A stretch of DNA of 64,000 nucleotides. Source: Shigella phage Tf. The stretch lies in sequence record OR980947; one strand, given 5' to 3'. Positions 4,717 through 64,000 of this stretch are shown here, in pieces. The notes under the pieces were generated by a model. That model saw only the letters and a list, made by a program, of their open reading frames with translations. It was not told where the DNA came from and did not search any database. The number at the start of each line of letters is the position of its first letter. The first letter of the stretch is position 1. A program made the position numbers and the translations under genes.

Positions 4717-10060
<5,344 letters not shown>

Positions 10061-11532: not shown

Positions 11533-12387
11533 ATGTTTCAGAAAATTGATGATGTCTACTATAAGACTCTTGACGAAAGAACTGTAACACAGTTTAAAGA
11601 TAAATTTATCTATACAAGTATCTTGAAAGCAATCACTGATGAATTACAAACTCTAGAAGATGTTTGCTGGCAGATGCACACAGAGAGAAATATCAGGACG
11701 TCAGTAGGCCAACAACTTGATAACATTGGCTCACTGATTAAAGTTCCTAGACCTTTAGGTGCAGATGATGAAACATATAGGGCTATGCTTTATATTCAAA
11801 TCTTCCTAAGACGCTCTGACACTACTCCAACATTCTTGCAAAAAGCAATTATGACACTATATGGTGCAACTTTCTCTCAGATTTTTGAGCATATTACTCC
11901 TAAGACTGGTGGTATCGTTATCCGTATTAACACCAGAAAGAGCGTTCTTGATGCTGCATATACACTGTCAAAGATTTCTGCAACAACTACTGGTTCTGCT
12001 GTTATCTTAAGAGATGTTACTTTAAATGGAACTGCTTGGACACCTGTAGAGGTTGCTGATTCAGCACTTGCCATTGTTGATGATAAAGAGAACTGGTTTG
12101 TAACTGATGCTAACAGAGGTCTGGTAACAAATAACACTGGTGGCTCTCTGGAGTCCAACCTAGTAGGGAGTCTTACAGATGCTGGTGTTATTGATGGTTA
12201 CTTTAAGGTTGACAGAACAGCAAACTCACAGAGTGATGATTATATGACTGTAGATAGGTCCAATAATAGTGGCTATTTCATCGTTGGTAAAGAAGCTATT
12301 GCAGGTGGTGCATATGGAATCATGGCTGAGGTTGCACAAATTGTCAAAGGCAGAAAAGATAAATCACAACAAGAAGGAAATTCTTAA
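11533..12387 (+). CDS. putative baseplate/tail fibre-associated protein (gpI-like)
   Basis: Synteny: follows J-like gene and precedes tail fibres. Confidence 0.4.
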
Positions 12388-12689
12388 TGGCAGTTTTAAA
12401 TTGGTCTACAAATGAAGTAGATACTGATGGTAACCAGTTAAAAGTTTTACCACCACCGGAAGTTCAAGAGACAGGTCTTTTAAAGGGTGAACCTATGGGT
12501 AGACAGTGGTTCAACTATATTATCAACTACCTGCTTAATAAAGTAAACGGCACTGTTGGTGAAGTTCGCTCATATGCAACTCAGCAACCAGATTTAGTAG
12601 CCAATGGCTGGAAACTAATTAAGTCTGAGACAGGGACTGCAACAACAAGTACAAAGAACCTTTACACATATGAATATGTAGGAGCTTAA
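12387..12689 (+). CDS. hypothetical tail fibre-associated protein
   Basis: 100 aa ORF coupled to flanking tail genes. Confidence 0.3.
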
Positions 12690-12691
12690 TA

Positions 12692-13867
12692 ATGGCAGTC
12701 GGTGAAATTCAAATTAGTGCCTTGCCACAAGCGGCATTACCAGTTGATTTAAGTGATATCTTCCATCTTAAGCAAGGTGTTGAAGATAAAAGATGTACAC
12801 TTGAACATTTGTTAGCACCTCACGCATCTTTAAGGAATAACCCCCATGGCGTAACCAAATCGCAAGTGGGTCTTGATAATGTTATTAACTCTCTTCAATT
12901 AGTTGCAGATAATAACTTGTCAGATATTGTAAATGTTGCTGAGGCAAGAGCAAATCTACAAATTATGTCGTCAGAAGAAGTGAATAGTTTAATTCAGCGA
13001 CATATTGACGACAAAAGTAACCCACACAATACAACGAAAGCACAGGTCGGTTTAAGTAATGTTCAGAACTGGACAACATCCAATCTGTACAATGAAGATG
13101 CTGATAAATATGCTACCGCGAAAGCAGTTAATAATTTATACAAAGCTATCCAAGCGTCATATCCAGTAGGGACTATTCATCTATCTGTTAACTCTGCTAA
13201 CCCATCCACTTACTTACTTTGTGGAGGTACTTGGGAGTTAGTCTCTAAAGGTAGAGCACTAGTTGGTTATGATACAGATTCTAGACCTGTTGGTTCAACG
13301 TTTGGTTCTCAGACTGTAGCATTAACAAATAATAATTTACCAGCACATACACACTCTATCTATTTAACAGGTGGTGGTCACACACACTCTGCAAGCGTAT
13401 CTATCTCTAGTTTTGATTATGGTTCAAAAAGTACATCAACTTTTGATTACGGTACAAAAACGACTAATAGTGCTGGTGCTCATACTCACACGTTTAGTGG
13501 CACAACAAGTAATGCTGGTAACCACAACCACAGAGTACCTATGAGGGGTAATGATAGAGGTGGTACAAATGCTATTACTGCATCTGCTGATGCTGGTGTT
13601 GGTAATGCTATGTATACTGATTTAGCTGGTGCTCACACCCATAGCTTCTCAGGCACAACTGCATCATCTGGTGCTCATAGTCATACTGTTGCAATTGGTG
13701 CTCATAGTCACACTGTCAATATTGGTTCACACAGTCATACTGGCACTGTTACTGTTTCTAGCTCTGAGCATACACACTCAGGGACATCTGGTTCTGTTGG
13801 TGGTGGTCAAGCTTTCAGTGTTGAGCAACCATCTTTTGTAGTATATGTATGGCAGAGAACAGCTTAA
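12692..13867 (+). CDS. tail fibre protein with C-terminal His-x-His repeat domain
   Basis: C-terminal repeats HTHS/HSHT/HNH (LPAHTHS, GAHTHTFSGTT, GAHSHTV) and FDYG(S/T)K repeats, resembling metal-binding fibre tips; terminator follows. Confidence 0.55.
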   Translation: MAVGEIQISALPQAALPVDLSDIFHLKQGVEDKRCTLEHLLAPHASLRNNPHGVTKSQVGLDNVINSLQLVADNNLSDIVNVAEARANLQIMSSEEVNSLIQRHIDDKSNPHNTTKAQVGLSNVQNWTTSNLYNEDADKYATAKAVNNLYKAIQASYPVGTIHLSVNSANPSTYLLCGGTWELVSKGRALVGYDTDSRPVGSTFGSQTVALTNNNLPAHTHSIYLTGGGHTHSASVSISSFDYGSKSTSTFDYGTKTTNSAGAHTHTFSGTTSNAGNHNHRVPMRGNDRGGTNAITASADAGVGNAMYTDLAGAHTHSFSGTTASSGAHSHTVAIGAHSHTVNIGSHSHTGTVTVSSSEHTHSGTSGSVGGGQAFSVEQPSFVVYVWQRTA

Positions 13868-13877
13868 TTTCTTTACA

Positions 13878-13897
13878 GGGGCTTTGTAGCCCCTTTT
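13878..13897 (+). terminator. rho-independent terminator
   Basis: Hairpin ggggct ttgt agcccc followed by tttt. Confidence 0.55.
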
Positions 13898-13913
13898 AAG
13901 AGGAAAATTTATA

Positions 13914-16274
13914 ATGGCAGATTACAAATTGAGTCAATTAAACTCAATCGACACAATTCGTTCAGAAGACCTATTGCACATCAGAGTTAAGAAAAGACCT
14001 GAAATGTTGGGTGACGAAGACCGTCGAATGACCTATCAAGACTTCTTAGCATCTTTTAAACTAGAAAGATTTGTTCAGATTGCTGGTAGCACTATGACGG
14101 GTGACTTAGGAATTGTTAAGTTACTTTATGGTGGTAAGGCAGTCTTTGACCCAACAGGCTCTTCTGAGATTAATATTGGTGATGTTTTAAAGACTTTTAA
14201 AATCAACGCAAATGGTCTTAAGTTAACCGTTGCAGATGCTTCAAGGTCTGCAACTGTTTATCATACTCTTAATAAACCAAGCCCTAATGAACTTGGGATG
14301 AGAACCAATGAAGAGAACGATGCAAGGTATGCAAAACTATCTGCAAATAACATCTTTACATCCCAACAAACTATCCAAGCAAATGGTGAAGCTATTAGGT
14401 TAAAAAACTCTTCTGAGAACTCACCGTTGTATATCAGAGGTCAGGATAGTGCTGGTGAGAATAGATGGTATATCGGTAATGGTTCAGGGGGTGATAATGT
14501 TACTATCCGCAACCACAAGACAGACTGTGAAGTTATTCTATCTAGTGTCGTGGCTATCAATAAAACATTAAGCATCACGGGTCAAGTCAAACCTTCTGAC
14601 TTCTCTAACTTAGATGCTAGATATTTCACTCAGACAGTCGCTAATCAGAGATTTGCACAGTTAGCTGGCAATAACACCTTTACAGGTGCTAACACATTTA
14701 GGACTATGAGTGTTATTTCAAATGCTGCTGCCATCACACTGCAATGTGCATCAGCAAACGAATCCCTGTATCTACTTGCAAAAGATTATGAAGGTGGAAA
14801 CTTATGGTATCTTGGTAAAGATAGTTCAGGTGCTGGTGTAACTATCTACAACTATACCACTAACACCTCTTTGTTCTTAGATGCTGCTGGGGTATCAGCA
14901 AATAAAAATGTCAGAATCACTGGACAAGTTCAACCTTCAGATTGGACTAACATTGACTCTAGATACATTCCAGTAGCTACTTTGAGCAATCTTGCTAAAA
15001 TTAATGTGTCTAACACTTTCACAAATGTGCAGACTATTGTATCAAATAATGAAGGTGTAGTATTAAAGAACTTAACACAGGGACAGCCGCAATATATCCG
15101 TGGTGTTGATACTGCGAACGTATCTAGGTGGTGGGTAGGTGTAGGTGATGCAAATTCTACTGATGTAGCCTTAAACAACAGCTTCTCTGGGACTCAAATT
15201 ACTCTTATGACTTCAGCGATTAAGGCTAATAAGAATCTAACCATTACTGGTCAAGTACAACCTTCTGATTGGTCTAACTTAGATGCTAGATATTTCTTGA
15301 AAACAAAACTATTAAACCAATCTTTAATGACAAGGACAGCTAATAGACTGGATGACCCATCATCATTCAACAAAGATTATTCAGGGTTTGTAAGAAATAA
15401 TAACATAGAGCAGGGTCTGAAAGATTTAGCCATCCATGTAGCACATGCTGCTGGTATTGCTCATGCCAGAGGTATTGCTTTTGAATATGGGTCTACAGGT
15501 CTTAATGTCTTCACATATGCCTATGGCAAAAATGGTGACTATGCCGGAGAAGCACAGATTTATACAACTGCTTTTAAACCAACCCCTTCAGAAATTGGTG
15601 CATACACTAAAGCTGAAACTGACCAGAAGATTGCAGAAGCGATTAGTGACTCTACAGACCTTAATAAAATCTATCCAGTAGGTATTGTAACGTGGTTTAA
15701 CAGTAATGTTAACCCTAATACAGCACTTCCTGGTCTAACTTGGACGTACCTGAATAATGGTGTTGGTAGAACTATTAGAATTGCAGCAGCAAACGGTTCA
15801 GATGTTGCTACAACTGGTGGTTCAGACTCTGTAACGTTGTCTGTTGGTAACTTACCTTCACACACGCATAGTTTCTCTGGAACGACTTCTTGGTTTGACT
15901 ATGGAACTAAGTACACAGACGGTCAGGGTGCTCACGACCATGACAGAGGTAACATGGAAATCTCTGGTGACTTTGGTTTCTTCAGAAGTGATGCAAATAA
16001 CTTTTATACAGCAAGTGGGGCATTCGCTATCTCAGGTTCACAAGCCTCTAGGGGTTTTACTGGCTCTAAGTTCACTTATGGTACACCTGTCAACTTCTAC
16101 GCATCAAGAACTTGGACAGGGAGAACAAGCTGGGTAGGTGCTCATGCACATGGTGTAGGTATTGGTGCTCACAACCATACGGTAAGTGGTAACACAGGTG
16201 TCACAGGTTCTGGTTCAGCATTTAGTGTCACTAACCAATTCTATAAGTTAATGGCTTGGGTAAGAACTGCTTAA
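13914..16274 (+). CDS. long tail fibre protein with triplicated internal repeat and HxH C-terminal domain
   Basis: Three copies of ITGQV(K/Q)PSD(F/W)(S/T)N(L/I)D(A/S)RY; C-terminus shares LPSHTHSFSGTT and GAHAHGVGIGAHNHTV motifs with ORF 12692..13867. Confidence 0.55.
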   Translation: MADYKLSQLNSIDTIRSEDLLHIRVKKRPEMLGDEDRRMTYQDFLASFKLERFVQIAGSTMTGDLGIVKLLYGGKAVFDPTGSSEINIGDVLKTFKINANGLKLTVADASRSATVYHTLNKPSPNELGMRTNEENDARYAKLSANNIFTSQQTIQANGEAIRLKNSSENSPLYIRGQDSAGENRWYIGNGSGGDNVTIRNHKTDCEVILSSVVAINKTLSITGQVKPSDFSNLDARYFTQTVANQRFAQLAGNNTFTGANTFRTMSVISNAAAITLQCASANESLYLLAKDYEGGNLWYLGKDSSGAGVTIYNYTTNTSLFLDAAGVSANKNVRITGQVQPSDWTNIDSRYIPVATLSNLAKINVSNTFTNVQTIVSNNEGVVLKNLTQGQPQYIRGVDTANVSRWWVGVGDANSTDVALNNSFSGTQITLMTSAIKANKNLTITGQVQPSDWSNLDARYFLKTKLLNQSLMTRTANRLDDPSSFNKDYSGFVRNNNIEQGLKDLAIHVAHAAGIAHARGIAFEYGSTGLNVFTYAYGKNGDYAGEAQIYTTAFKPTPSEIGAYTKAETDQKIAEAISDSTDLNKIYPVGIVTWFNSNVNPNTALPGLTWTYLNNGVGRTIRIAAANGSDVATTGGSDSVTLSVGNLPSHTHSFSGTTSWFDYGTKYTDGQGAHDHDRGNMEISGDFGFFRSDANNFYTASGAFAISGSQASRGFTGSKFTYGTPVNFYASRTWTGRTSWVGAHAHGVGIGAHNHTVSGNTGVTGSGSAFSVTNQFYKLMAWVRTA

Positions 16275-55997: not shown

Positions 55998-56462
55998 ATG
56001 AACAATATCATTACGGTAGCACTGGACGTTACGGCAAACAAATCTGAAGTGGTTCGTAACATTATCAAGAACAACTTCGAGGGTAAAATCTTTCGTGCTG
56101 TCAATGTAAAAGCAGATGGTAACATTCGGGAGTATCGTGCTCTTTTGAATGTTAAGAAACACGTAAAAGGTTCTGGCTCAACGACAGCACACAAAGAAAA
56201 CCTGATGACTATCTATGATATGGGGATGGCTTCAGAGTTAGGTGCTGAAGGTATCGTTAAAGAAGGTGCTCCGTATCGCTCTTTCAATCTGGAAACTGCT
56301 CTTATGCTTTCCTTTACAAGTGGTTCTAAAACAACTACTTATCTCTTTACTGATGCTGCAACGGTATCTGCTATTAAGGATAGCACTGTCAAAGCTGGGG
56401 TAGCTGCTGCTGCAAAAGCTTCTTCGATGGCTGCGAATATCCTTGCTAAAGTCCTCGGTTAA
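55998..56462 (+). CDS. hypothetical protein
   Basis: 154 aa ORF followed by strong terminator. Confidence 0.3.
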   Translation: MNNIITVALDVTANKSEVVRNIIKNNFEGKIFRAVNVKADGNIREYRALLNVKKHVKGSGSTTAHKENLMTIYDMGMASELGAEGIVKEGAPYRSFNLETALMLSFTSGSKTTTYLFTDAATVSAIKDSTVKAGVAAAAKASSMAANILAKVLG

Positions 56463-56473
56463 GGTTAAGATAC

Positions 56474-56496
56474 AGGCTCCTTCGGGAGCCTTTTTA
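56474..56496 (+). terminator. rho-independent terminator (UUCG tetraloop)
   Basis: ggctcc ttcg ggagcc followed by ttttt; identical to the hairpin at 58229. Confidence 0.65.
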
Positions 56497-56513
56497 AATT
56501 TCAAGGAGTATTA

Positions 56514-57398
56514 ATGAAGCCGATGTTCAAATATCTTGGTGGTAAAACAAGAATATTAAAAGAGTATGAGCGTTTAGGTGTCTTTCCAGACAACTGTACA
56601 AACTTCTATGACCTGTTTTCAGGTGGTGGTTCAGTGGCTATCTGGGCTTATAACAGATACCCAGAGGCAAAAGTGTTTATTAATGAGATAAATAAACATA
56701 TTATAGGTCTTTACACAACTTTCAGAGATGACTATGAAAACTTCATGGAAGAATTTGAGTACTTGTCAAAAAGGTACTTAGCCTTACCTATGCAGGAAGA
56801 GTATGCCGTGAAAGGTCAGCGTCATAACCGTCTACGCTATAAAATGTATTACAGTGTAAGAGAGGAACTTCTTTTGCTTGGTGAAGAGGGAGCATATGAC
56901 TACAGATACTATGCCAGACAGTTTTTCCTTCAAAAACTAAGTTTTGGTGGTGTATGGCAGACAACTAAAGAGATGAAAGGTCACTATGCAACACCTTGCG
57001 GGTATTTGCTGGAAGAAGAGATTTTCTTCACAAAAACTAAAGAATCACTATCCGAGTTTTACAGTTTTATCACCGATGAAAGGGTAATACTTAGCAGTGA
57101 ACCTTATGACAGGGTTGACATAGAACATGGAGGAGGTACAGTTATTTACTGTGACCCCCCGTATATCAACACCAACCAGAAATATGGTGCAAAGTTTGAC
57201 ATTGAGATGTCTGTAAAATTATGCGAAGATATGATTTCTTGGGGGGAGTTAGGCTCTAAAGTTTTGATGTCAAACTCTCAGTGGGATGGATGGGCAAAGC
57301 TAATTCCTGAAAATTTTAACTTGACAGAGGTTAGTCATTCATACACAATACATGCACAGAGAAGCAAAGATATTAACGAAGTAATTATTCACAACTAA
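56514..57398 (+). CDS. dam: Dam-family DNA N6-adenine methyltransferase (alpha-class)
   Basis: N-terminal YLGGKTRIL, SAM motif DLFSGGGSV, C-terminal catalytic DPPY. Confidence 0.75.
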   Translation: MKPMFKYLGGKTRILKEYERLGVFPDNCTNFYDLFSGGGSVAIWAYNRYPEAKVFINEINKHIIGLYTTFRDDYENFMEEFEYLSKRYLALPMQEEYAVKGQRHNRLRYKMYYSVREELLLLGEEGAYDYRYYARQFFLQKLSFGGVWQTTKEMKGHYATPCGYLLEEEIFFTKTKESLSEFYSFITDERVILSSEPYDRVDIEHGGGTVIYCDPPYINTNQKYGAKFDIEMSVKLCEDMISWGELGSKVLMSNSQWDGWAKLIPENFNLTEVSHSYTIHAQRSKDINEVIIHN

Positions 57399-57491
57399 GG
57401 TATCAAGTTATGGCAAACAGCATCAATGTAGCACTGAATGGCAAGGTTGTTAAAATTCACACTAAGATTATCAGTGTCGAGGATTTCCTTA

Positions 57492-58223
57492 ATGAAAAAC
57501 GTTACAAAGAAAAACCCTCGTCAACGAAATACACTTAAGCGTCTGAAAAGCAAACACCTTAATGGTGACGTATCACCAGACCAAACAGTAGTCCATGTGG
57601 CTAAGTTCGGTAGTTCACTGTTCATCATTGATGGTCACTCACGTCGAGAGGCGTGGAAAGTTGGTAACCTGACACGACCAGAAAACTTGATTGCAGTTAT
57701 ATACCATGTGAACTCCATATTGGATGTCACAGATTTGTACACTCATTTTGACTCTGAGTTAGCAAGAGAAAAACCCTCAGAAGTTTATTACGGAAATATG
57801 AAGATGATTTCTTTCAACCCAGAGTCAGAACTGATGAAAGCATCTTGGGCAACTGCTATTAAATATGTTGCTGCATACTACGGTGTACAACAAGTATCTA
57901 ACACTGAAACAGTTAAATATCTTAATGACTTTAAAAATGAGCTGGAACAAATTGATTCTCTTGAAGTACAGCTTAAAGGTGTAGTAAACGCAAAACGGAA
58001 ATATTCTTCTGGGATTCGTGCAGCAATGTTAATTACACTACGCCTATATGGTGATGCTGCATTTTCCTTTTGGGAAGACTATAATGACTACTGTGAAGGT
58101 ATGTCTAACAAATATGTTACAGAGGTATACCAACTGGCATTACAAGCTGGTCGCGGAGCACAGGCTGATAAGTTGTTGATGAATCAAGCGATTTCACTTG
58201 TCAACTATTACAGTCAAGAATAA
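57492..58223 (+). CDS. ParB/Srx-like domain protein, paralog B (function unknown)
   Basis: Motif FIIDGHSRREAWKVGNL; paralog of ORF 53602..54441; probable ATG at 57492 (gagga RBS) within tracked ORF 57438..58223; directly downstream of Dam methyltransferase. Confidence 0.35.
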   Translation: MKNVTKKNPRQRNTLKRLKSKHLNGDVSPDQTVVHVAKFGSSLFIIDGHSRREAWKVGNLTRPENLIAVIYHVNSILDVTDLYTHFDSELAREKPSEVYYGNMKMISFNPESELMKASWATAIKYVAAYYGVQQVSNTETVKYLNDFKNELEQIDSLEVQLKGVVNAKRKYSSGIRAAMLITLRLYGDAAFSFWEDYNDYCEGMSNKYVTEVYQLALQAGRGAQADKLLMNQAISLVNYYSQE

Positions 58224-58228
58224 TACAC

Positions 58229-58251
58229 AGGCTCCTTCGGGAGCCTTTTTC
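58229..58251 (+). terminator. rho-independent terminator (UUCG tetraloop)
   Basis: ggctcc ttcg ggagcc followed by ttttt. Confidence 0.65.
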
Positions 58252-58269
58252 ATTTCAGGAGATTGTTAA

Positions 58270-58617
58270 ATGACATTTAAAGAGTTCTGTCAAGCTACTT
58301 TCATAATTGTTTTCTTAGTTGGGACAGGTGTCTGGGGAGGATACTCTTACAGAGACTACCAAGTTGCTGAAACTGAGCTAAATAATGAGAAACTAATAAG
58401 TGTTGCTAAAGATGCTTATCAGGAAGGTTTAGTTACACTGAGCACCAATTACAAAAATGATTTGAAAGATGTGCTTGCTAAGAATAAGCACACAAAAGAG
58501 GTAATAACATATGAAAAGACTAAGCCAGAGTTTTATAATGTTTGTGTTACTGATAATTATGTCAGGGTGTTCAACGAACAAAGTGAGCAGTACATTCAAA
58601 AACTCCCAAGTAAGTGA
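58270..58617 (+). CDS. putative i-spanin (Rz-like)
   Basis: N-terminal TM helix FIIVFLVGTGVWGG then periplasmic charged/coiled region; o-spanin ORF overlaps its 3' end. Confidence 0.45.
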   Translation: MTFKEFCQATFIIVFLVGTGVWGGYSYRDYQVAETELNNEKLISVAKDAYQEGLVTLSTNYKNDLKDVLAKNKHTKEVITYEKTKPEFYNVCVTDNYVRVFNEQSEQYIQKLPSK

Positions 58618-58780
58618 GAGTGATAAGTACACTCAAGAGGAATCAAGATTCACTGTCAAAGGTAATACTGGCAGCGATGTGGCAGCAGCCCTTGAGTTTT
58701 ATCGTGACGGCTTTTACCAGTGCACAATCAAAGCTAATAACCTTATTGACATGATTTTATTAGGAAATAAACAGCAATGA
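58511..58780 (+). CDS. putative o-spanin lipoprotein (Rz1-like), overlapping i-spanin in another frame
   Basis: Lipoprotein signal with lipobox LLIIMSGC; starts inside the i-spanin gene and extends beyond it. Confidence 0.5.
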   Translation: MKRLSQSFIMFVLLIIMSGCSTNKVSSTFKNSQVSESDKYTQEESRFTVKGNTGSDVAAALEFYRDGFYQCTIKANNLIDMILLGNKQQ

Positions 58781-59046
58781 CAGAGAATGAAGACACTTTC
58801 TATGTAGAGGGTTACTTACTGTTGCCACGACCAAAAGAAACTTATATGCGGGTTGATTTCTCACCAACCATTATGGATAATGTGATGTGCCATATCTTTA
58901 TGCAAGGTGTCACAGCACAGCTTAAGCATGTTGGTAAAGAGTGCAAAATAAAGGTTGACACTCATCCAGAAATCAAAGAGAATCACTACACATGGTTCTT
59001 ACCAGACTCTAAAGAAATCTTAGCAGTTCTAAAAACGAGGAAGTAA
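58777..59046 (+). CDS. hypothetical protein
   Basis: 89 aa ORF, start overlaps previous stop. Confidence 0.3.
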   Translation: MTENEDTFYVEGYLLLPRPKETYMRVDFSPTIMDNVMCHIFMQGVTAQLKHVGKECKIKVDTHPEIKENHYTWFLPDSKEILAVLKTRK

Positions 59047-59048
59047 CT

Positions 59049-59375
59049 ATGCAGATTAATGGAAGAGAATTTGTAGCCGTTTACTATGAGAACGAGAAAG
59101 AAGTTGGTGTAGCACAGGTAACCTATGGTAATGGTAAGTGGCTATATGGGACAATTGCAGTAGTCGGAACAAGAAGTGATACAAAAACTTTTAAAGATTG
59201 TGTTGACCTTCTTGAAGAATCCATCCAGAATCATTGGTGTCTGATATGGATGACTGACAACGAAGTGATGGAGCGTTTCAAAAAGATTGGTGTCAACATT
59301 GACAGTATTGAGCATGTTGATTTATATGAGCTAACTGAGATGGTAAACTATGAAAGTAATACTAGCCAGAGATAA
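59049..59375 (+). CDS. hypothetical protein
   Basis: 108 aa ORF. Confidence 0.3.
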   Translation: MQINGREFVAVYYENEKEVGVAQVTYGNGKWLYGTIAVVGTRSDTKTFKDCVDLLEESIQNHWCLIWMTDNEVMERFKKIGVNIDSIEHVDLYELTEMVNYESNTSQR

Positions 59376-59577
59376 AAAGACACGAAAAATTATCCGGTCA
59401 GCAGTACTCATTGGAAGAAATGAAGTGATTCCTTTTACAGCAAATGATGTGATAATCTACAGGAAAAAATTAGCATTCAGTTATTGCTTACGTGGCTTTA
59501 TCTCCCAGCCATTGGAAGACTTTAAAAGTCGTTGTGGTAAAGGTATCATCATTCAAGAGGCAATTATTCATGGCTGA
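59350..59577 (+). CDS. hypothetical protein
   Basis: 75 aa ORF. Confidence 0.25.
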   Translation: MKVILARDKKTRKIIRSAVLIGRNEVIPFTANDVIIYRKKLAFSYCLRGFISQPLEDFKSRCGKGIIIQEAIIHG

Positions 59578-59770
59578 TTTCTGCAAGAAGTGTGCAATAG
59601 AACATTTTGGTGTTGATACAGGGGACTTGAAAGGTCTCTTCACCAAAGAAGAGTTTGAAGCTGGTTCAGCTATGCCAGTAATCTGTGAAGGTTGTGGATG
59701 TATCTGGGTAGACCATGAAGGGCAACGTGTAAAACCTTCAGAAGATAAAGAATCTTGGGAGAGATGTTAA
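59570..59770 (+). CDS. small cysteine-rich (zinc-binding) protein
   Basis: ATG at 59570; CKKC ... CEGCGC cysteine motifs; 66 aa. Confidence 0.3.
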   Translation: MADFCKKCAIEHFGVDTGDLKGLFTKEEFEAGSAMPVICEGCGCIWVDHEGQRVKPSEDKESWERC

Positions 59771-60556
59771 ATGGGTATTGTAAAAATCATCAATGGTGAT
59801 ATCTTTAATGCTTTTGATAAAGGTAAGTTTGACATCATTGGTCACGGTTGTAATTGTATGAATTTAATGGGTGCAGGTATCGCTGACAAGATTTCTAAAC
59901 TTTACCCAAAAGCATATGAGACCGATACAGAAGTTTACCTATATGCAGGTGGCATAGGTCACAAACCCTGTGAAAATTTACTGGGTAATTTCTCTGTAGC
60001 ACGTTTAAAACAAGGTCGTATAGCTAACCTTTACACTCAGCTTAAAACTGGTAAAGATGCCAGATACAGTGCTTTAGAGTCATCTTTGAAGCAGCTTAAC
60101 AGATACTGTGAAGTTAATCAGTTGAAGAAAGTCGGTTTACCTATGATTGGTGCAGGTATCGGTGGGTTGGACCCTCAAGCCGTCACAGTTATCATCAATC
60201 AGGTGATGAAGAGTGTAGATGTTTATCTATATGTCTATGAAGGAGAGATGTACCACAAGTTACGCTCAGGTTGGAAGAACTACTGTGAACCAGAATACTT
60301 TGCAGGTGTAGTTGTGTTCACGGATAATGCAGTTACCCTCTTCAGACGAAGAAAAGGTAAGATACATCAAAGTAACCCTCCGGTTGAAAAGATGTCTCTG
60401 AGTAACGCTCTAGTTACCCACCTGTCGAAGAGCAATCACAGGATTGCAGTAACATTTGGCAGCGATGCAGATACTTACATCTATGCAAGAACTGATGAGG
60501 ATATCGAAGCAATTTTCTCTTCACCAGAAGTTACCTTCTTAGACGCAAAGAACTAA
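59771..60556 (+). CDS. macrodomain protein (ADP-ribose binding/hydrolase family) with C-terminal extension
   Basis: Macro motifs GDIFNAFDKGKFDIIGHGCNCMNLMGAGIADKI and GLPMIGAGIGGLDP. Confidence 0.6.
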   Translation: MGIVKIINGDIFNAFDKGKFDIIGHGCNCMNLMGAGIADKISKLYPKAYETDTEVYLYAGGIGHKPCENLLGNFSVARLKQGRIANLYTQLKTGKDARYSALESSLKQLNRYCEVNQLKKVGLPMIGAGIGGLDPQAVTVIINQVMKSVDVYLYVYEGEMYHKLRSGWKNYCEPEYFAGVVVFTDNAVTLFRRRKGKIHQSNPPVEKMSLSNALVTHLSKSNHRIAVTFGSDADTYIYARTDEDIEAIFSSPEVTFLDAKN

Positions 60557-60586
60557 GAAACTCTGTAGAATATTCACAATAGATTA

Positions 60587-60635
60587 AGCCTTCCTTATCT
60601 GGTAAATTTTTCAGGTAAGGAAGGCTTTTTTATTT
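60587..60635 (+). terminator. rho-independent terminator
   Basis: agccttcctta ... taaggaaggct hairpin followed by ttttttattt. Confidence 0.65.
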
Positions 60636-60639
60636 CAAG

Positions 60640-60825
60640 ATTGTGCAGGTAGAGTTCTGTAGAGAAATCTGTAGAGAAAATTTTGAACTCCAAAGAGAAA
60701 ATTCATTTTCAAACTGTGCAGGTAATCTCCAAAGAGATTTTTCATTTTCAAAACGTGCAGAGAAAAATCAGGTCGGGCAAGAAAAATCATTTTAGAATTG
60801 TGCAGGTAGGTGGGTGCAGGTGGGG
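60640..60825. repeat. iteron-like direct repeat cluster in a ~500-bp noncoding region
   Basis: gtgcag(g) recurs at about 60643, 60715, 60746, 60800, 60814; tandem ctgtagagaaa x2; cattttcaaaac x2. Confidence 0.6.
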
Positions 60826-60984
60826 ATGTCGCCATTTCTCACAAGGCTACCACATCTGAAAAGAAAAGTCAACAGAAAAATTTGTAGCGGATTGAAAAAT
60901 AATTCTTGATTTGTGTTCTGTTTTGTGGTATTCGCGCGCACCCGTTTCATTACATTTTTGCCAAAAATATTTTTAAAATTTTTC

Positions 60985-61013
60985 TTGACTATTCGAACGG
61001 GGTTATCTAGTAT
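60985..61013 (+). promoter_or_regulatory. early promoter (ttgact-N17-tagtat) with conserved leader
   Basis: -35 ttgact, 17-nt spacer, -10 tagtat; leader hairpin ggagagggaatgaccttcccc and shared RBS leader ccttaaactaggagattcaaaaATG. Confidence 0.55.
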
Positions 61014-61077
61014 TTGCATCAACGGAGAGGGAATGACCTTCCCCACTAAATTAACCCTTAAACTAGGAGATTCAAAA

Positions 61078-61266
61078 ATGGTATCAAGAAAAATTAAAGT
61101 TGGCGATGAGGTTAACATTAAGCACGAATACTCTTACAAAATGCTAACTATACGCTCTTATAAGGTTTATCAGGTGGAAGCTATCCACAAAGATAATACT
61201 TTTTCCTTAAAAGGGTATAGCGAACGTTTCCCCGCTGAACTCTTTGAGAAATGGAGCGCGAAATAA
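61078..61266 (+). CDS. small early protein (62 aa)
   Basis: ATG preceded by taggag RBS within conserved leader. Confidence 0.4.
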   Translation: MVSRKIKVGDEVNIKHEYSYKMLTIRSYKVYQVEAIHKDNTFSLKGYSERFPAELFEKWSAK

Positions 61267-61472
61267 TGCTTTACAGTCGTGAATTGATGGTTACAAATAA
61301 CGTTAACACAAATGTAAAACGTTTTTACATGAAAATCTGTGGTGTATGGTCCAGAATATCAGAAGCCGACTATTGCAACTATGTAGAAACGGCAATCAAC
61401 TCTGATTGTTATCTTACAAAGAATACTAAAAAATTTACGAGACAGACAGCAGTTTACTACTACGATATCTAA
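61266..61472 (+). CDS. small early protein (68 aa)
   Basis: ATG overlapping upstream stop (taATG). Confidence 0.3.
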   Translation: MLYSRELMVTNNVNTNVKRFYMKICGVWSRISEADYCNYVETAINSDCYLTKNTKKFTRQTAVYYYDI

Positions 61473-61560
61473 TAAAGTACTTTACAAGGGGCTTATAGTT
61501 CGATAAAGTAAGCCCCAGATAAAGAGCTTTACCACTAAATCCTAAATTGGAGAACTTAAA
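61472..61560 (+). repeat. intergenic repeat cassette type A (hairpin + promoter/RBS leader), copy 1
   Basis: aaagtactttacaaggggcttatagttcgataaagtaagccccagataaagagctttaccactaaatcctaaattggagaac; near-identical at 63129 and 63926, variant at 61816. Confidence 0.6.
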
Positions 61561-61561
61561 A

Positions 61562-61819
61562 ATGGCTATTATCAAAAACGTTGTAATTACTGTAAAGACT
61601 CGTGATGACGCTCGTATCATGGCTAAAAAGTTATGCGGGAAAGTGGTTGACAACGGAAAACAATCTGCTGTAAGGTGGGGCGTGAAGGTTGATAAACAAC
61701 TAACCTTAAAACGCAGTTCAAACAACCTTTTTAAAGGTGTAAAATCACTCGGTAAAGTGAACGTTTTTACCAAAAAAGGCTATAAAATGCACTTATCATT
61801 AACTGGCAATTTAATCTGA
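61562..61819 (+). CDS. small early protein (85 aa)
   Basis: ATG after conserved cassette with ggagaa RBS. Confidence 0.4.
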   Translation: MAIIKNVVITVKTRDDARIMAKKLCGKVVDNGKQSAVRWGVKVDKQLTLKRSSNNLFKGVKSLGKVNVFTKKGYKMHLSLTGNLI

Positions 61820-61908
61820 TAAAGTACTTTACAGGGGGCTTAAAAGCTGATATCTTAAGCCCCAGATAAAGAGCTTTACTAACTAACCTTAAACTAGGAG
61901 ATTCAAAA
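61816..61908 (+). repeat. intergenic repeat cassette type A (variant), copy 2
   Basis: ctgataaagtactttacagggggcttaaaagctgatatcttaagccccagataaagagctttac followed by shared leader ccttaaactaggagattcaaaaATG. Confidence 0.55.
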
Positions 61909-62421
61909 ATGAAAACTGTAGACGCTACCTTTGAAGTTGTAAAAGAAAAATTTTCCATCATTTACGAAGCTGTCAACTGCTACGAACCAAGTCATGCCCT
62001 TGAAGATTGGGAATTTACAGATGACCATCAAGGCGGGGTAACTATAAAAAATCCTAACTATCAACACAATGCATTTAAATATGCAATCCCTTTACATTAC
62101 AGCCTGAAACAGCTTTCGAGTGACTATGCAAAACAAGGCCGGGCAAATCCATCCCGTGAGGCTTATATCAGCTTACAGGAAGAACTGCAAAGGGATTTAG
62201 AAGCTTCAGAATATTACCTATCTGCAAAAGTTGTCGATGCAAACGGGAAAACGGTTTTAGATAGTTTTTCTATTGGTTACGCTTTCGATTGGTGCTATAG
62301 TGACGGCGTCGATTTAGCGGATAGACTAAAAGAGGAAGTGAGCAATTCAGGCGCAGAATCTGAAGTTATGGAACAATTAGAAGCCTTAAAAGATTCAGTG
62401 ATGAATATCTTTAAAAATTAA
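61909..62421 (+). CDS. early protein (170 aa)
   Basis: ATG after shared leader. Confidence 0.4.
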   Translation: MKTVDATFEVVKEKFSIIYEAVNCYEPSHALEDWEFTDDHQGGVTIKNPNYQHNAFKYAIPLHYSLKQLSSDYAKQGRANPSREAYISLQEELQRDLEASEYYLSAKVVDANGKTVLDSFSIGYAFDWCYSDGVDLADRLKEEVSNSGAESEVMEQLEALKDSVMNIFKN

Positions 62422-62437
62422 ATTAAGAGGAAACAGC

Positions 62438-62770
62438 ATGTTAATGATGGGTATCACTGCAATCATTGCCATTGTAGCACTTTATAAGGCATATAAAGCC
62501 TATAATCTGGCAAGTAAGGCAATCACACAACAGGTTAGCAATAGCCTTGTAGAGAGCTTTCTGGAGCGTTTAAGCAATGAGCAATTAAAACGGTTAGAAA
62601 TGAGCTTCAGATTCCAATCAAAAACTTATCAAATCAGCGACATTTTTAAAGAGGATTTTCAGCTTGTCGATGATTATAATTCACTGATAAATGCTTTAAA
62701 TGTCAGTGACTTAAAAGACTACTACGCTGTAATTGTTCAAGAACTGAGCAAACGAAAACAAAATGCTTGA
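62438..62770 (+). CDS. small early protein with N-terminal TM helix (110 aa)
   Basis: Hydrophobic N-terminus MLMMGITAIIAIVALY; stop overlaps next promoter. Confidence 0.35.
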   Translation: MLMMGITAIIAIVALYKAYKAYNLASKAITQQVSNSLVESFLERLSNEQLKRLEMSFRFQSKTYQISDIFKEDFQLVDDYNSLINALNVSDLKDYYAVIVQELSKRKQNA

Positions 62771-62859
62771 CACTGGTTTTTAGATAGATTAAATTACACA
62801 TCAACGGGGAGGGAATGGCCTTCCCACTAAATAAAGTCCTTAAACTAGGAGGTTCTAAA
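62758..62859 (+). repeat. promoter cassette type B, copy 2 (ttgaca-N17-taaatt + leader hairpin)
   Basis: cttgacactggtttttagatagattaaattacacatcaacggggagggaatggccttccc; near-identical to 63624..63727; related to 60981..61077. Confidence 0.6.
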
Positions 62860-63132
62860 ATGTATACTACTAACAACGGTCGCACTTTAAATGCCACACT
62901 ACGTCACTATGTAGATGGTGTCATGCACTTTGAGGATTTACAAGCTGAGCAACACATCTTAGATTGGCAAGTCGCAGGACTCCAAAAAACTGCTACCGGA
63001 TACGGTAAAAAGATTCCAACTAGTTGGAAAGTACACTACGAAGGCCGTTTGCGCAGAATTTATCAGGATGTGCAAAGCAATAGTGCATCGAGTTACATCA
63101 TGGTAAAAGGTAAAAAGCTGCATCTAGTGTAA
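62860..63132 (+). CDS. small early protein (90 aa)
   Basis: ATG after taggag RBS in conserved leader. Confidence 0.4.
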   Translation: MYTTNNGRTLNATLRHYVDGVMHFEDLQAEQHILDWQVAGLQKTATGYGKKIPTSWKVHYEGRLRRIYQDVQSNSASSYIMVKGKKLHLV

Positions 63133-63218
63133 AGTACTTTACAAGGGGCTTATAGTTCGATAAAGTAAGCCCCAGATAAAGAGCTTTACCACTAAATCCT
63201 AAATTGGAGAACTTGAAA
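63129..63218 (+). repeat. intergenic repeat cassette type A, copy 3
   Basis: Near-identical to 61472..61560 including hairpin ggggcttatagttcgataaagtaagcccc. Confidence 0.6.
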
Positions 63219-63623
63219 ATGGCTATTAATAACCGTGAATTATCAATTTTAAAAGCACGTTTGACCGTTAACCGGATTAATGTTATTACGTCATCAGCAC
63301 CAGATGAAACATTGCACAACATTATTGGGAAGATTCAAAGTGTTATCTTAGACGTTGAAAACGTGAAAAACTCATTAACTGACGTTGCAGTAGGTATCAC
63401 GCTAGACGGTGCACAATACGAAATGGCTGACATGTTGGGCAAATCTAAGGTAATGAATAAAGAGCTGGATTTGAAAATGTTTCGTTTTGCCGTGAAAGTA
63501 TGGCTATCCGTCGAATATGATGCTAATTATGCAATCGCTGACTTTTTCGCCACTTGGTTGCAGCGTAATTTGACAAATCACGATTTTCGTAATATCTGCG
63601 ATGCAATCTATTCAGAACTTTAA
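63219..63623 (+). CDS. early protein (134 aa)
   Basis: ATG after conserved cassette. Confidence 0.4.
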   Translation: MAINNRELSILKARLTVNRINVITSSAPDETLHNIIGKIQSVILDVENVKNSLTDVAVGITLDGAQYEMADMLGKSKVMNKELDLKMFRFAVKVWLSVEYDANYAIADFFATWLQRNLTNHDFRNICDAIYSEL

Positions 63624-63727
63624 AAAATTTTCTTGACACTGGTTTTTAGATAGATTAAATTACACATCAACGGGGAGGAAATGACTTCCCCACTAAATAA
63701 AAACCCTTAAACTAGGAGATTCAAAAA
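63624..63727 (+). repeat. promoter cassette type B, copy 3
   Basis: tcttgacactggtttttagatagattaaattacacatcaacggggaggaaatgacttcccc then shared RBS leader. Confidence 0.6.
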
Positions 63728-63925
63728 ATGGCTATTGTTAACGGTTTAAACATTGAAACTACTCACATCAAAGATATCAAAGTCGGTGATATAGTCCTTT
63801 TTCACGGCGTAGAAAGAACTGTTACTGAAAAGGATATCAAGGAGGATTCATTCATGGGCCGGACTCTCTTTGGTGATTCATATTGCTTAGGTTACCTTGC
63901 AGTTTTAAAAGTTGTCAAAAATTAA
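63728..63925 (+). CDS. small early protein (65 aa)
   Basis: ATG after shared leader. Confidence 0.4.
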   Translation: MAIVNGLNIETTHIKDIKVGDIVLFHGVERTVTEKDIKEDSFMGRTLFGDSYCLGYLAVLKVVKN

Positions 63926-64000
63926 CTGATAAAGTACTTTACAAGGGGCTTATAGTTCGATAAAGTAAGCCCCAGATAAAGAGCTTTACCACTAAATCCT
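63926..64000 (+). repeat. intergenic repeat cassette type A, copy 4 (truncated by window end)
   Basis: ctgataaagtactttacaaggggcttatagttcgataaagtaagccccagataaagagctttaccactaaatcct. Confidence 0.55.

Follow-up and report, generated by a model that had tools for sequence, protein, structure and literature searches.

Repeated stem-loop cassettes with predicted sigma-70 promoters in a shuffled small-gene array of a Felix O1-like phage

The DNA analysed here is a 64,000-nucleotide stretch of Shigella phage Tf (record OR980947), hereafter called the window, and its positions 60981-64000 are the first 3 kb of a hyperplastic small-gene array in a Felix O1-like phage. According to our main reading, to which we give a probability of roughly 0.7, this array is equipped with cassettes that each combine a promoter read by the host's sigma-70 RNA polymerase, a G/C-clamped stem-loop and a conserved leader with a Shine-Dalgarno sequence, and its units are shuffled by recombination between these cassettes. 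The sequence architecture, its conservation, the covariation in the stems and the footprints of recombination were established in the present analysis. All 254 phage records that match the window (at 88-91% identity) are Felix O1-like, and the window belongs to a Felixounavirus genome (Ounavirinae, about 87 kb) in which the region opens the array whose counterpart in Felix O1 is genes 14-23. In relatives, this array comprises about 9-19 genes, with about 10-17 promoter cassettes per genome.

The eight small ORFs (62-170 aa) that the earlier note had listed in this region are real; all lie on the + strand and every one has a full-length match to a PHROG family (Table 1). Searches of Pfam, NCBIfam and PHROGs with the array ORFs returned only families without assigned function and no known domains. 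Sequence searches of solved structures with the 170-aa and 134-aa ORFs gave nothing, and a structural model of the 170-aa protein (pLDDT 84.7) had no match among solved structures, the best fold match having E = 0.1 and TM <=0.28. No convincing family match was obtained for opposite-strand ORFs or for those in the upstream spacer. A cassette had been described before each of the eight ORFs, which is correct for six of them; those at 61266 and 62438 have just a Shine-Dalgarno sequence in front of them and are second cistrons. The window has seven cassettes, the last one cut by the window end. Cassettes are 85-100 nt long and the upstream stop codon lies at or within their 5' edge, as illustrated by the 110-aa ORF, whose TGA stop codon sits within the -35 hexamer of type B cassette 2.

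Table 1. Positions of cassettes, ORFs and the bordering terminator in the window.
Feature	Position	Strand	Details
Intrinsic terminator closing the upstream operon	60586..60627	+	17-bp stem then TTTTTATTT; left border of array region; t13 of the Felix O1 list (PMC3185647)
Type B cassette 1 (repeat copy 60971-61080)	60985..61077	+	-35 TTGACT 60985-60990; -10 TAGTAT 61008-61013; predicted start about 61020-61022; 5' stem-loop 61024-61044; AGGAG 61065-69
ORF, 62 aa, family F15	61078..61266	+	phrog_15633
ORF, 68 aa, family F09	61266..61472	+	phrog_5293; second cistron without cassette
Type A cassette 1 (repeat copy 61466-61564)	61473..61561	+	-35 TTTACA 61481-86; -10 TAAAGT 61504-09; upper stem 61488-95 with 61509-16; lower-stem partner TAAAGAGCTTTA 61520-31; predicted start about 61516-18
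ORF, 85 aa, family F10	61562..61819	+	phrog_5089
Type A cassette 2 (repeat copy 61813-61911)	61820..61908	+	-35 61828-33; hairpin 61835-63; -10 TATCTT 61851-56, preceded by TGn; leader of type B style; predicted start near 61864
ORF, 170 aa, family F02	61909..62421	+	PHROG match; found in all four genera
ORF, 110 aa, family F03	62438..62770	+	phrog_4375; second cistron
Type B cassette 2 (repeat copy 62756-62862)	62767..62859	+	TTGACA 62767-72; TAAATT 62790-95; predicted start about 62802-04; 5' stem-loop 62806-25
ORF, 90 aa, family F01	62860..63132	+	phrog_3436; found in 12/12 genomes compared
Type A cassette 3 (repeat copy 63123-63221)	63130..63218	+	-35 63138-43; hairpin 63145-73; -10 63161-66; predicted start near 63174
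ORF, 134 aa, family F04	63219..63623	+	phrog_4327
Type B cassette 3 (repeat copy 63622-63730)	63633..63727	+	TTGACA 63633-38; TAAATT 63656-61; predicted start about 63668-70; 5' stem-loop 63672-91; fold z-score -3.2
ORF, 65 aa, family F14	63728..63925	+	phrog_3623
Type A cassette 4, cut by window end (repeat copy 63923-64000)	63930..64000	+	-35 63938-43; hairpin 63945-73; predicted start near 63974; family F07 downstream in relatives

The existence of two repeated cassette families, and their near-identity over about 90 nt, was borne out. The families are repeated far beyond chance: type A copies are 78-99% identical over 78-99 nt, the two TTGACA-N17-TAAATT type B copies share 87% identity over 89 nt, and the hairpin GGGGCTTA-N13-TAAGCCCC occurs four times (0.00 expected) and is confined to this array within the 64 kb. 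Several finer points of the earlier description had to be amended. The type B consensus TTGACA-N17-TAAATT applies to two copies, but the first copy has TTGACT with TAGTAT as its -10; this copy is the first promoter of the array and its position is kept in all four genera. The type A hairpin, described as embedded in TTTACA-N17-TAAAGT, is indeed present four times, but the copy at 61813 has TATCTT as its -10, a 9-bp stem and an 11-nt loop. The type A element is also larger than described, since TAAAGTACTTTA upstream and TAAAGAGCTTTA downstream, with 8 occurrences versus 0.19 expected, stretch its hairpin to about 19-20 bp in three segments. The leader CTTAAACTAGGAGATTCAAAAATG, which both families were thought to share, does recur (4 occurrences at <=2 mismatches versus 0 expected), but among the three complete type A copies a single one has the exact type B leader; the other two carry a related yet different leader, CCTAAATTGGAGAACTTAAAAATG.

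We examined the promoter-like elements in a census of 100 cassettes (53 type A and 47 type B) from 11 genomes of four Ounavirinae genera. The -35 element, the spacer and the -10 were kept throughout, just as expected from the idea that the cassettes act as promoters: the spacer measured 17 bp in 97/100 cassettes, the -35 hexamer was nearly fixed and the -10 was always TAnnnT. For type A (n=53, 11 genomes), the -35 was TTTACA in 52 cassettes, the spacer was 17 bp long in 51, with the other 2 at 18 bp, and TAnnnT was found in 53/53 while being spelled as 13 different hexamers. This motif is retained though it lies inside an otherwise variable hairpin loop, where T at -12 and A at -11 are the only invariant loop positions in alignment A1. 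Type B cassettes (n=47) had a TTGACA-like -35, a 17-bp spacer in 46/47, and TAAATT, TAAAGT, TAGTAT, TAATAT or TACTAT as -10 hexamers. Within the window, a sigma-70 scan flagged 7/7 cassettes with 9-10 of 12 matches. A point against the promoter reading is that the single-sequence promoter scan was only weakly enriched in the region (33 sites versus 22.2 +/- 4.7 expected). A/T-rich tracts, for example AAAATTTTTC, lie upstream of the boxes. Sigma-70 promoters are marked by hexamers spaced 17 +/- 1 bp apart and by a -10 with A as its second and T as its sixth base, and the census supports the prediction that the cassettes are such promoters; it is on this basis that we infer promoter activity. 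An E. coli cell-free extract supplied with naked DNA of Felix O1 or VpaE1 can produce these phages (PMC10933291), and the host polymerase alone would therefore start their programme. We also considered a MotA-box-like reading of the type A GCTTTA motif and rejected it, because the transcription start would then fall within the Shine-Dalgarno sequence.

With respect to timing, end-point RT-PCR in Felix O1 placed the peak of genes 16, 20, 21 and 22 at 5 min and that of genes 14, 17, 19 and 23 at 25 min, with a late peak for none of these eight array genes (PMC3185647). Such timing is crude and mixed, and does not separate type A from type B. We infer that the array is expressed early and strongly. 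According to both the Felix O1 genome paper (PMC3185647) and the VpaE1 paper, it is not known how transcription is controlled over time.

The type A hairpin consists of helices of 6, 5 and 8-9 bp separated by 1x1 and 3x3 internal loops, and folds with -24.3 kcal/mol (z-score -4.05). In its upper stem the spacer pairs with the discriminator, which leaves the -10 hexamer in the loop, and in its middle stem the -35 hexamer pairs with +5 to +9. Across the alignment, 96.5% of cells were paired, a level reached by 0/500 shuffles. Compensatory changes from G-C to U-A were found at pair 19-44 (8 copies) and pair 6-57 (3 copies), and pair 21-42 was U·G in 23 copies and C-G in 20; this covariation represents few evolutionary events, and cassette copies from the same genome are not independent. 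The sense strand outfolded the antisense strand in 31/44 copies, and within Felixounavirus the antisense strand folded about as well as the sense strand. Type B stem-loops have variable stems and were folded sequence by sequence, which gave 28 different stem-loop sequences, always placed 10-11 nt past the -10 hexamer. In Kolesnikvirus, the -35 or the -10 hexamer is located in the hairpin loop. Judged by the compensatory changes and the sense-strand G·U pairs, the stem-loops are probably selected as structures.

What could these structures do? In type B, transcription from the promoter would yield an RNA whose 5' end forms the stem-loop within 2-5 nt, and this would shield the mRNA from decay that depends on the 5' end. 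The predicted promoter of type A is wrapped in the three-segment hairpin. Because the transcript of the type A promoter itself lacks the 5' arm, the hairpin would form only in read-through RNA from the upstream unit, where it would insulate units from each other through attenuation, RNase III-type processing or 3'-end stabilisation.

The strongest competitor, possible though in our view not probable, gives processing the leading part: type A would mainly be a site at which host RNase III cuts the hairpin in read-through transcripts, so that each mRNA gains a stable 3' hairpin, and the promoter-like boxes would be secondary or weak. This is consistent with the three helices (19-20 bp in total) and their two internal loops, with a hairpin start 0-10 nt past the upstream stop codon, with G·U pairs that favour the sense strand, and with the absence of a U-tract. 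However, an RNase III site has no need of an invariant TTTACA, a 17-bp spacing and a TAnnnT within a variable loop, and an Rfam search of 60400-64000 returned no family. Processing and promoter roles are, moreover, compatible rather than exclusive.

We consider it rather unlikely that type A is an operator or recognition site for a phage protein, be it a repressor that turns off early genes, a middle-gene activator or a recombination factor, which would read either two AAAGnnCTTT palindromes flanking the core promoter or the GGGG...CCCC clamp. The sequence TAAAGNNCTTTA does occur 8 times (0.19 expected), only in type A cassettes and with centres 47 bp apart, and in four genera these blocks, like some unpaired bases, hardly vary. 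The authors who described the PeSL (promoter-early stem-loop) cassettes of T4-type phages likewise suspected a stem-loop-binding protein (PMC2839356). Pairing leaves the invariant unpaired positions (AGA at +1 to +3, and A at column 55 of A1) unexplained, and a protein may therefore also read the element. Yet the compensatory changes at pair 6-57 link the upstream and downstream half-sites and break both palindromes while keeping the long hairpin, and the invariance of TAAAG follows from its pairing with the constrained -35 hexamer. Nor did the analysis find a candidate regulator, and the array ORFs have no known domains.

A more speculative proposal, to which we attach little probability, is that type A is a switch that couples the promoter to upstream transcription, supercoiling or replication, or an element read by a phage protein. 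As a switch, it could work through hairpin or cruciform extrusion, via the pairing of the -35 with the first transcribed bases and of the spacer with the discriminator. As for the protein, a reader of type A could time early shut-off or catalyse cassette exchange. If this were true, the array would resemble an integron that lacks an integrase.

The earlier note had named hairpins acting only as terminators as grounds for abandoning its reading, and our data point the other way. No U-tract follows any type A or type B stem (the sequence is AGATAAAG after type A stems and ACTAAAT after type B stems), and a terminator scan of this stretch flagged only the bordering terminator of Table 1. Since the hairpins covary and have no U-tracts, they are not simply terminators. 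The notion that they are just intergenic terminators or attenuators with an accidental likeness to -35 and -10 boxes is accordingly very unlikely, even though they directly follow stop codons and PeSL stem-loops cut read-through in lacZ fusions (PMC2839356): the same arrays place canonical terminators with a hairpin and U-run where a promoter is absent, upstream of F08, the type B stem-loop lies downstream of its promoter, and the promoter hexamers and spacing are conserved in 100/100 cassettes.

Gene shuffling at the repeats, which had been suggested from the window, was supported by comparison with relatives in the form of gain and loss of units, a crossover inside a cassette, and mosaic cassettes. 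The gene map revealed gain, loss, duplication (F10 in Michonne) and relocation (F15, F11 and F17) of single units, and F12 follows cassettes of different types in different places. The Tf genome lost F06 through a crossover that maps within a cassette, and loop and leader variants are mosaic relative to the downstream gene. Positional orthologues of the cassettes in close relatives were conserved not much better than genes. Since every unit has about 100 nt of near-identical sequence at its flanks, we propose that the cassettes undergo homologous recombination; it would delete, insert, duplicate and move units, and would also homogenise the cassettes. In a distant search, cassette matches were confined to Ounavirinae, with copies occurring in this array only, in Ounavirinae-like contigs of 81-94 kb. 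Five single matches to a type A 17-mer in unrelated viral contigs lacked the rest of the cassette and were dismissed as chance. The many copies, the palindromic core and the signs of within-genome homogenisation might also suggest that the repeats are selfish intergenic elements (REP- or MITE-like) that play no part in regulation, but this is most improbable, as every copy has the same orientation, exactly fills the gap from stop codon to Shine-Dalgarno sequence and ATG, keeps the promoter geometry, and is confined to this array.

The closest known system is that of the PeSL cassettes (Arbiol, Comeau and Krisch 2010, PMC2839356; Comeau et al. 2014, PMC4122927). PeSL and Tf cassettes have in common an A/T-rich tract, sigma-70 boxes, a GGGG...CCCC stem-loop located between the boxes, overlapping one of them or downstream of the -10, and a Shine-Dalgarno sequence. 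Both are concentrated in a plastic region of small genes without known function, where close relatives differ by gain, loss or replacement of units with crossovers within the cassette. They differ in lineage (T4-like versus Ounavirinae, about 87 kb), have no detectable DNA similarity, and are arranged in several dispersed regions for PeSL versus one single array in Tf. The extended three-segment hairpin of Tf type A, which pairs the -35 with the initial transcribed sequence, sets it apart from PeSL. For PeSL, experiments demonstrated promoter activity, terminator activity and recombination mini-circles, whereas the Ounavirinae cassettes are known from sequence, and it is from this resemblance that we regard them as cassettes that probably work like PeSL in an independent or very distant lineage.

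Two further systems offer partial parallels. The early region of T7 has host-polymerase promoters, with RNase III hairpins between genes that are long and interrupted, contain an internal loop and lack a U-tract; its three tandem promoters at one end give one long transcript. Tf likewise has long interrupted hairpins with an internal loop and no U-tract between cistrons, but most of its units have a predicted promoter of their own, and the type A promoter is embedded in the hairpin. The host-takeover module of SPO1 contains about 20 small genes in many short operons with strong host-type early promoters and ribosome-binding sites; it lies in the terminal redundancy and is not built from near-identical repeated cassettes. 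SPO1 and Tf share a cluster of small genes that mostly lack a known function. In contrast to the SPO1 module, the Ounavirinae array is apparently not at a physical genome end, and the possibility that it enters the cell first was rejected on the terminus positions in relatives. In Fifi318, whose numbering starts at the PhageTerm terminus, about 14.5 kb separate the cassette match from the right end; the record start of UAB_Phi87 is not its 608-bp terminal repeat; and BPS15Q2 was opened about 460 bp past the array and carries no terminal repeat.

Parts of the cassettes had been recorded before. Whichard et al. (2010, PMC3185647) listed, without interpretation, a 57-bp repeat at Felix O1 genes 15/16 and 19/20, which is type A, and a 39-bp repeat at genes 18/19 and 20/21, which is type B; an earlier description in the phiEa21-4 genome paper is possible. 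The predicted cassette promoters are absent from the Felix O1 promoter list (P11, P41, P45, P102 and P117; PMC3185647).

Felix O1-like phages are used for Salmonella typing and biocontrol, and two genome papers leave the organisation of their early transcription unexplained. The cassettes offer a concrete promoter map for each genome, with predicted start sites, and may serve phage engineering as compact, portable expression units. They also suggest that the PeSL design, in which a promoter fused to a stem-loop serves at the same time as recombination linker, extends beyond T4-like phages. Altogether, the array would be a site of small-gene exchange among these phages, and its genes are candidates for host-takeover or anti-defence functions.

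The 60500-64000 region matched 254 phage records at 88-91% identity, all of them Felix O1-like myoviruses (genus Felixounavirus, subfamily Ounavirinae) with Escherichia, Salmonella, Shigella or Citrobacter as hosts. It corresponds to the Felix O1 region past terminator t13, genes 14 to about 20, and the array continues beyond the window end; in relatives it runs for 3-4 kb more and then meets a terminator. All eight plus-strand ORFs (Table) gave a full-length match to a PHROG family, every one of unknown function, and opposite-strand ORFs in the array gave no convincing family match. For the 170-aa protein a confident structure of strands and helices was predicted (pLDDT 84.7), with no significant match among solved structures. 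A homologue of its ORF (P0037) is encoded on a contig that was submitted as an Escherichia coli plasmid and measures 88,055 bp, a length consistent with that of a Felix O1-like phage genome entered as a plasmid.

The repeated cassettes are real and confined to the array. Four copies of the type A hairpin (GGGGCTTA-N13-TAAGCCCC) were counted where shuffles gave an expectation of 0.00, along with two exact copies of the type B promoter block and four copies, at up to two mismatches, of the leader common to the cassettes; none of these was found anywhere else in the 64-kb window. Identity among the type A copies is 78-99% across 78-99 nt, and the closest type B pair is 87% identical across 89 nt. 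The earlier note was largely right in both finding and interpretation, with corrections of detail. It had placed a cassette before each of the eight ORFs, which holds for all except those starting at 61266 and 62438, second cistrons without a cassette. The -35 given for type B, TTGACA, is TTGACT in the first copy; one type A copy departs from the perfect hairpin with a TAAAGT -10 by its 9-bp stem and TATCTT; and the leader said to end both types is replaced in two of the three complete type A copies by a related but different one.

Positions of features in the Tf window and in array loci of relatives (L numbers)
Genome or locus	Position	Strand	Feature
Tf	59771-60556		gene of the 261-aa protein
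Tf	60630-60830		direct repeats, four copies of about 26 nt each
Tf	60906-60934		promoter-like element TTGATT-N17-TATTCG
Tf	61040-61080		leader with mini-hairpin
Tf	61078-61266	+	ORF 1, PHROG match
Tf	61266-61472	+	ORF 2, PHROG match
Tf	61562-61819	+	ORF 3, PHROG match
Tf	61880-61911		leader with mini-hairpin
Tf	61909-62421	+	ORF 4 (170 aa), PHROG match
Tf	62438-62770	+	ORF 5, PHROG match
Tf	62860-63132	+	ORF 6, PHROG match
Tf	63219-63623	+	ORF 7, PHROG match
Tf	63728-63925	+	ORF 8, PHROG match
L001 (Felix O1)	5806-7429 (Felix O1 12305-13928)		post-array gene-free stretch
L007, L008, L010			post-array gene-free stretch
L004 (Barry)	5017-5380		duplicated type A cassette
L010 (Kolesnikvirus)	about 9216-9327		cassette with hexamer in loop
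L010 (Kolesnikvirus)	about 9860-9970		cassette with hexamer in loop
L011 (Kolesnikvirus)	about 10433-10544		cassette with hexamer in loop
L011 (Kolesnikvirus)	11070-11180		cassette with hexamer in loop
L011 (Kolesnikvirus)	11375-11484		cassette with hexamer in loop

Since one sequence alone cannot settle promoter status, we compared homologous arrays of 11 genomes from four genera (Felixounavirus, Suspvirus, Mooglevirus, and Kolesnikvirus, whose hosts are Erwinia and Hafnia), reading every intergenic region. Among 53 type A cassettes, 52 had TTTACA as the -35 hexamer, 51 had a 17-bp spacer and two an 18-bp one, and the -10 followed TAnnnT throughout, in 13 versions (e.g. TAAAGT, TATCTT, TAAGAT, TAGTAT, TACCTT and TAATCT). 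Within the variable hairpin loop, the alignment showed T at -12 and A at -11 as the sole invariant positions, which is explained by a sigma-70 -10 element and not by the hairpin alone. The 47 type B cassettes carried TTGACA, TTGCAA, TTGACT, TTGACG, TAGACA or TTGATT as -35, a 17-bp spacer in 46 cases, and TAAATT, TAAAGT, TAGTAT, TAATAT or TACTAT as -10. The proposal of two cassette families, each joining a promoter to a hairpin, is thus upheld by -35, 17-bp spacer and -10 elements kept across four genera. A sigma-70 scan of 56000-64000 returned 33 promoter-like sites against 22 expected, a weak enrichment, and the sigma-70 pattern was detected in all seven window cassettes with 9-10 of 12 matches. 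Published work gives indirect support: purified Felix O1 and VpaE1 DNA yields phage in E. coli cell-free extract (PMC10933291), which implies that host polymerase alone starts both programmes. Crude RT-PCR of Felix O1 placed the peak of array genes 16, 20, 21 and 22 at 5 min and of genes 14, 17, 19 and 23 at 25 min, with none of them peaking late (PMC3185647); this timing does not separate type A from type B. Altogether, we consider the cassettes to be host-type promoters with a probability of about 0.8. A further conserved promoter-like element, preceded by TGG, is found some 75 bp ahead of the first array promoter; it reads TTGACT-N17-TAGTTG or TATTCG in SUSP1 and Michonne, and its -10 hexamer atypically ends in G.

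The type A hairpin reported earlier is present, and was drawn too small: the whole cassette forms one three-segment hairpin (-24.3 kcal/mol, z-score -4.05). In its upper stem (8-9 bp) the promoter spacer pairs with the discriminator; a 3x3 internal loop leads to a 5-bp stem, in which the -35 hexamer (CTTTA) pairs with TAAAG at about +5 to +9, and in the 6-bp outer stem an upstream TAAAGT pairs with a downstream AGCTTTA. Over 44 distinct copies 96.5% of cells were paired, a level reached by 0 of 500 shuffles, and pairing fell to 32-57% when the partner columns were slid. By the columns of A1, the alignment of type A cassettes, pair 19-44 is G-C in 36 copies and U-A in eight, namely all Kolesnikvirus copies, while pair 21-42 is U·G in 23 and C-G in 20. 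Pair 6-57 is G-C in 39 copies and U-A in three, a change that breaks both local palindromes and keeps the long hairpin, which favours flank-to-flank pairing over two separate protein sites. The G·U pairs are functional as pairs on the sense strand only, and this strand folded better than the antisense in 31 of the 44 copies, with an advantage of 4-6 kcal/mol in three genera that is absent in Felixounavirus itself. A role as canonical intrinsic terminator was rejected for type A, and its hairpins are unlikely to act only as terminators, because no U-run follows the stem, the terminator scan gave no flag, and the arrays use a canonical hairpin-plus-U-run terminator at the promoter-less site upstream of F08 (F numbers denote protein families of the array). 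Since the type A transcript itself starts within the 3' arm, the full hairpin would exist only in read-through RNA from upstream or in single-stranded DNA. As an RNA, it would likely insulate the units from one another, via attenuation, RNase III-type processing or 3' stabilisation, each single role having even odds at best.

The type B stem-loop begins 10-11 nt past the -10 hexamer, or 2-5 nt past the predicted start, and occurs in 28 sequence versions, each with a GGG...CCC clamp; the stem is followed by ACTAAAT, without a U-run. In E. coli, stem-loops close to the 5' end classically shield transcripts from decay that depends on that end, and the type B element may protect its mRNA in the same manner. 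The leaders, including the two tabulated, carry a mini-hairpin of 3-4 bp closing a UAAACU loop and including the first Shine-Dalgarno bases (CCU...AGG). It recurs in shifted register as UCC...GGA in SUSP1 and Michonne and as CCUU...AAGG in Kolesnikvirus, and leader conservation exceeds the need of a ribosome-binding site alone.

Array proteins of 12 genomes were clustered and mapped together with the cassette types. Array order was broadly syntenic, with units gained and lost: F06 is missing in the Tf window and Felix O1, F10 in Felix O1 and GEP101 (with two copies in Michonne), and F02 in Barry and VpaE1. F15, first in the Tf array, lies mid-array in Michonne; F11 and F17 have a different place in Kolesnikvirus; F14 and F17 alternate at one site; and F12 stands behind a type B cassette in Felixounavirus and behind type A in SUSP1 and Michonne. 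In a three-way alignment, the Tf F09-F10 cassette equals the NJ12 F09-F06 cassette on its left and the NJ12 F06-F10 cassette on its right, and the crossover of this F06 loss or gain falls within the common CTAATAAAGT-CTTTACA stretch. Which loop (-10) or leader variant a cassette carries does not depend on its downstream gene, and two Felix O1 cassettes have one private loop variant in common, which points to exchange or conversion between cassettes. The absence of F11 in Tf left a junction without a cassette; cassettes account for some, not all, array differences. Same-position cassettes of close relatives are about as conserved as genes, and in distant relatives a DNA search still detects cassettes only, not genes. 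The earlier idea of recombination-driven shuffling is thus borne out in related phages by unit gain and loss, a crossover inside a cassette and mosaic loop and leader variants, and the cassettes probably mediate unit exchange. The type A motif is restricted to Ounavirinae-like contigs of 81-94 kb and their fragments; five isolated matches elsewhere lack the remainder of the cassette and were dismissed as chance. In phage Barry the duplicated type A cassette is annotated as Repeat_01, and three downstream genes have annotated starts within or ahead of the cassette, which means that these gene starts are mis-set.

Several features surround the array. Directly upstream of the terminator, at the same position in all genera, lies the gene of a 261-aa protein annotated in relatives as macro-domain phosphatase or O-acetyl-ADP-ribose deacetylase. 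The gene-free spacer from the terminator to the first array promoter holds the 26-nt repeats (TTTTCATTTTCAAnnTGTGCAGGTA), kept in position and sequence in all four genera (TTTTTCATTTTCAATTTGTGCATAGG in Erwinia/Hafnia phages) and followed by a C-rich tract in several genomes; these could be iterons or regulator sites. Past the array, beyond the window, all relatives have about 1.5-1.7 kb of sequence that holds internal repeats and no genes. Several GenBank records open inside it, e.g. BPS15Q2, whose two ends have no terminal repeat in common.

Early regulation in Felix O1-like phages was called unanswered in the VpaE1 paper, and the Felix O1 genome paper gave the cassette sequences merely as 57-bp and 39-bp direct repeats, not tied to transcription and absent from its promoter list (PMC3185647). 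The closest known system is that of the PeSLs, the promoter-early stem-loop cassettes of T4-type phages. PeSLs are repeated and combine a sigma-70 promoter and an A/T-rich tract with a Shine-Dalgarno sequence and a GGGG...CCCC stem-loop, whose place is between the promoter boxes, over them or after them (PMC2839356, PMC4122927). They cluster in regions of small orphan genes, have been found experimentally to be promoters and attenuators, and recombine into mini-circles (PMC2839356, PMC4122927). A literature search, whose reach did not extend to the older phiEa21-4 paper, found no paper linking Felix O1 to PeSLs. The Tf cassettes have all the sequence-level features of PeSLs; however, Tf is not a T4-type phage and its cassettes have no detectable sequence similarity to those of T4-type phages, which sets them outside the PeSL lineage. 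In Kolesnikvirus the combination of promoter and hairpin recurs in other registers, with a canonical terminator (GGGGC-TTTACA-GCCCC-TTTTT) that has the -35 TTTACA as its loop and, in other cassettes, a GGGGG/CCCCC hairpin whose loop is the -10 TAAAAT. Type A elaborates on the PeSL design by its extended hairpin, in which the -35 hexamer is paired to the earliest transcribed nucleotides. Judged by these sequence features, the array would function as PeSL arrays do and is best classed as a PeSL-like system of a second phage lineage.
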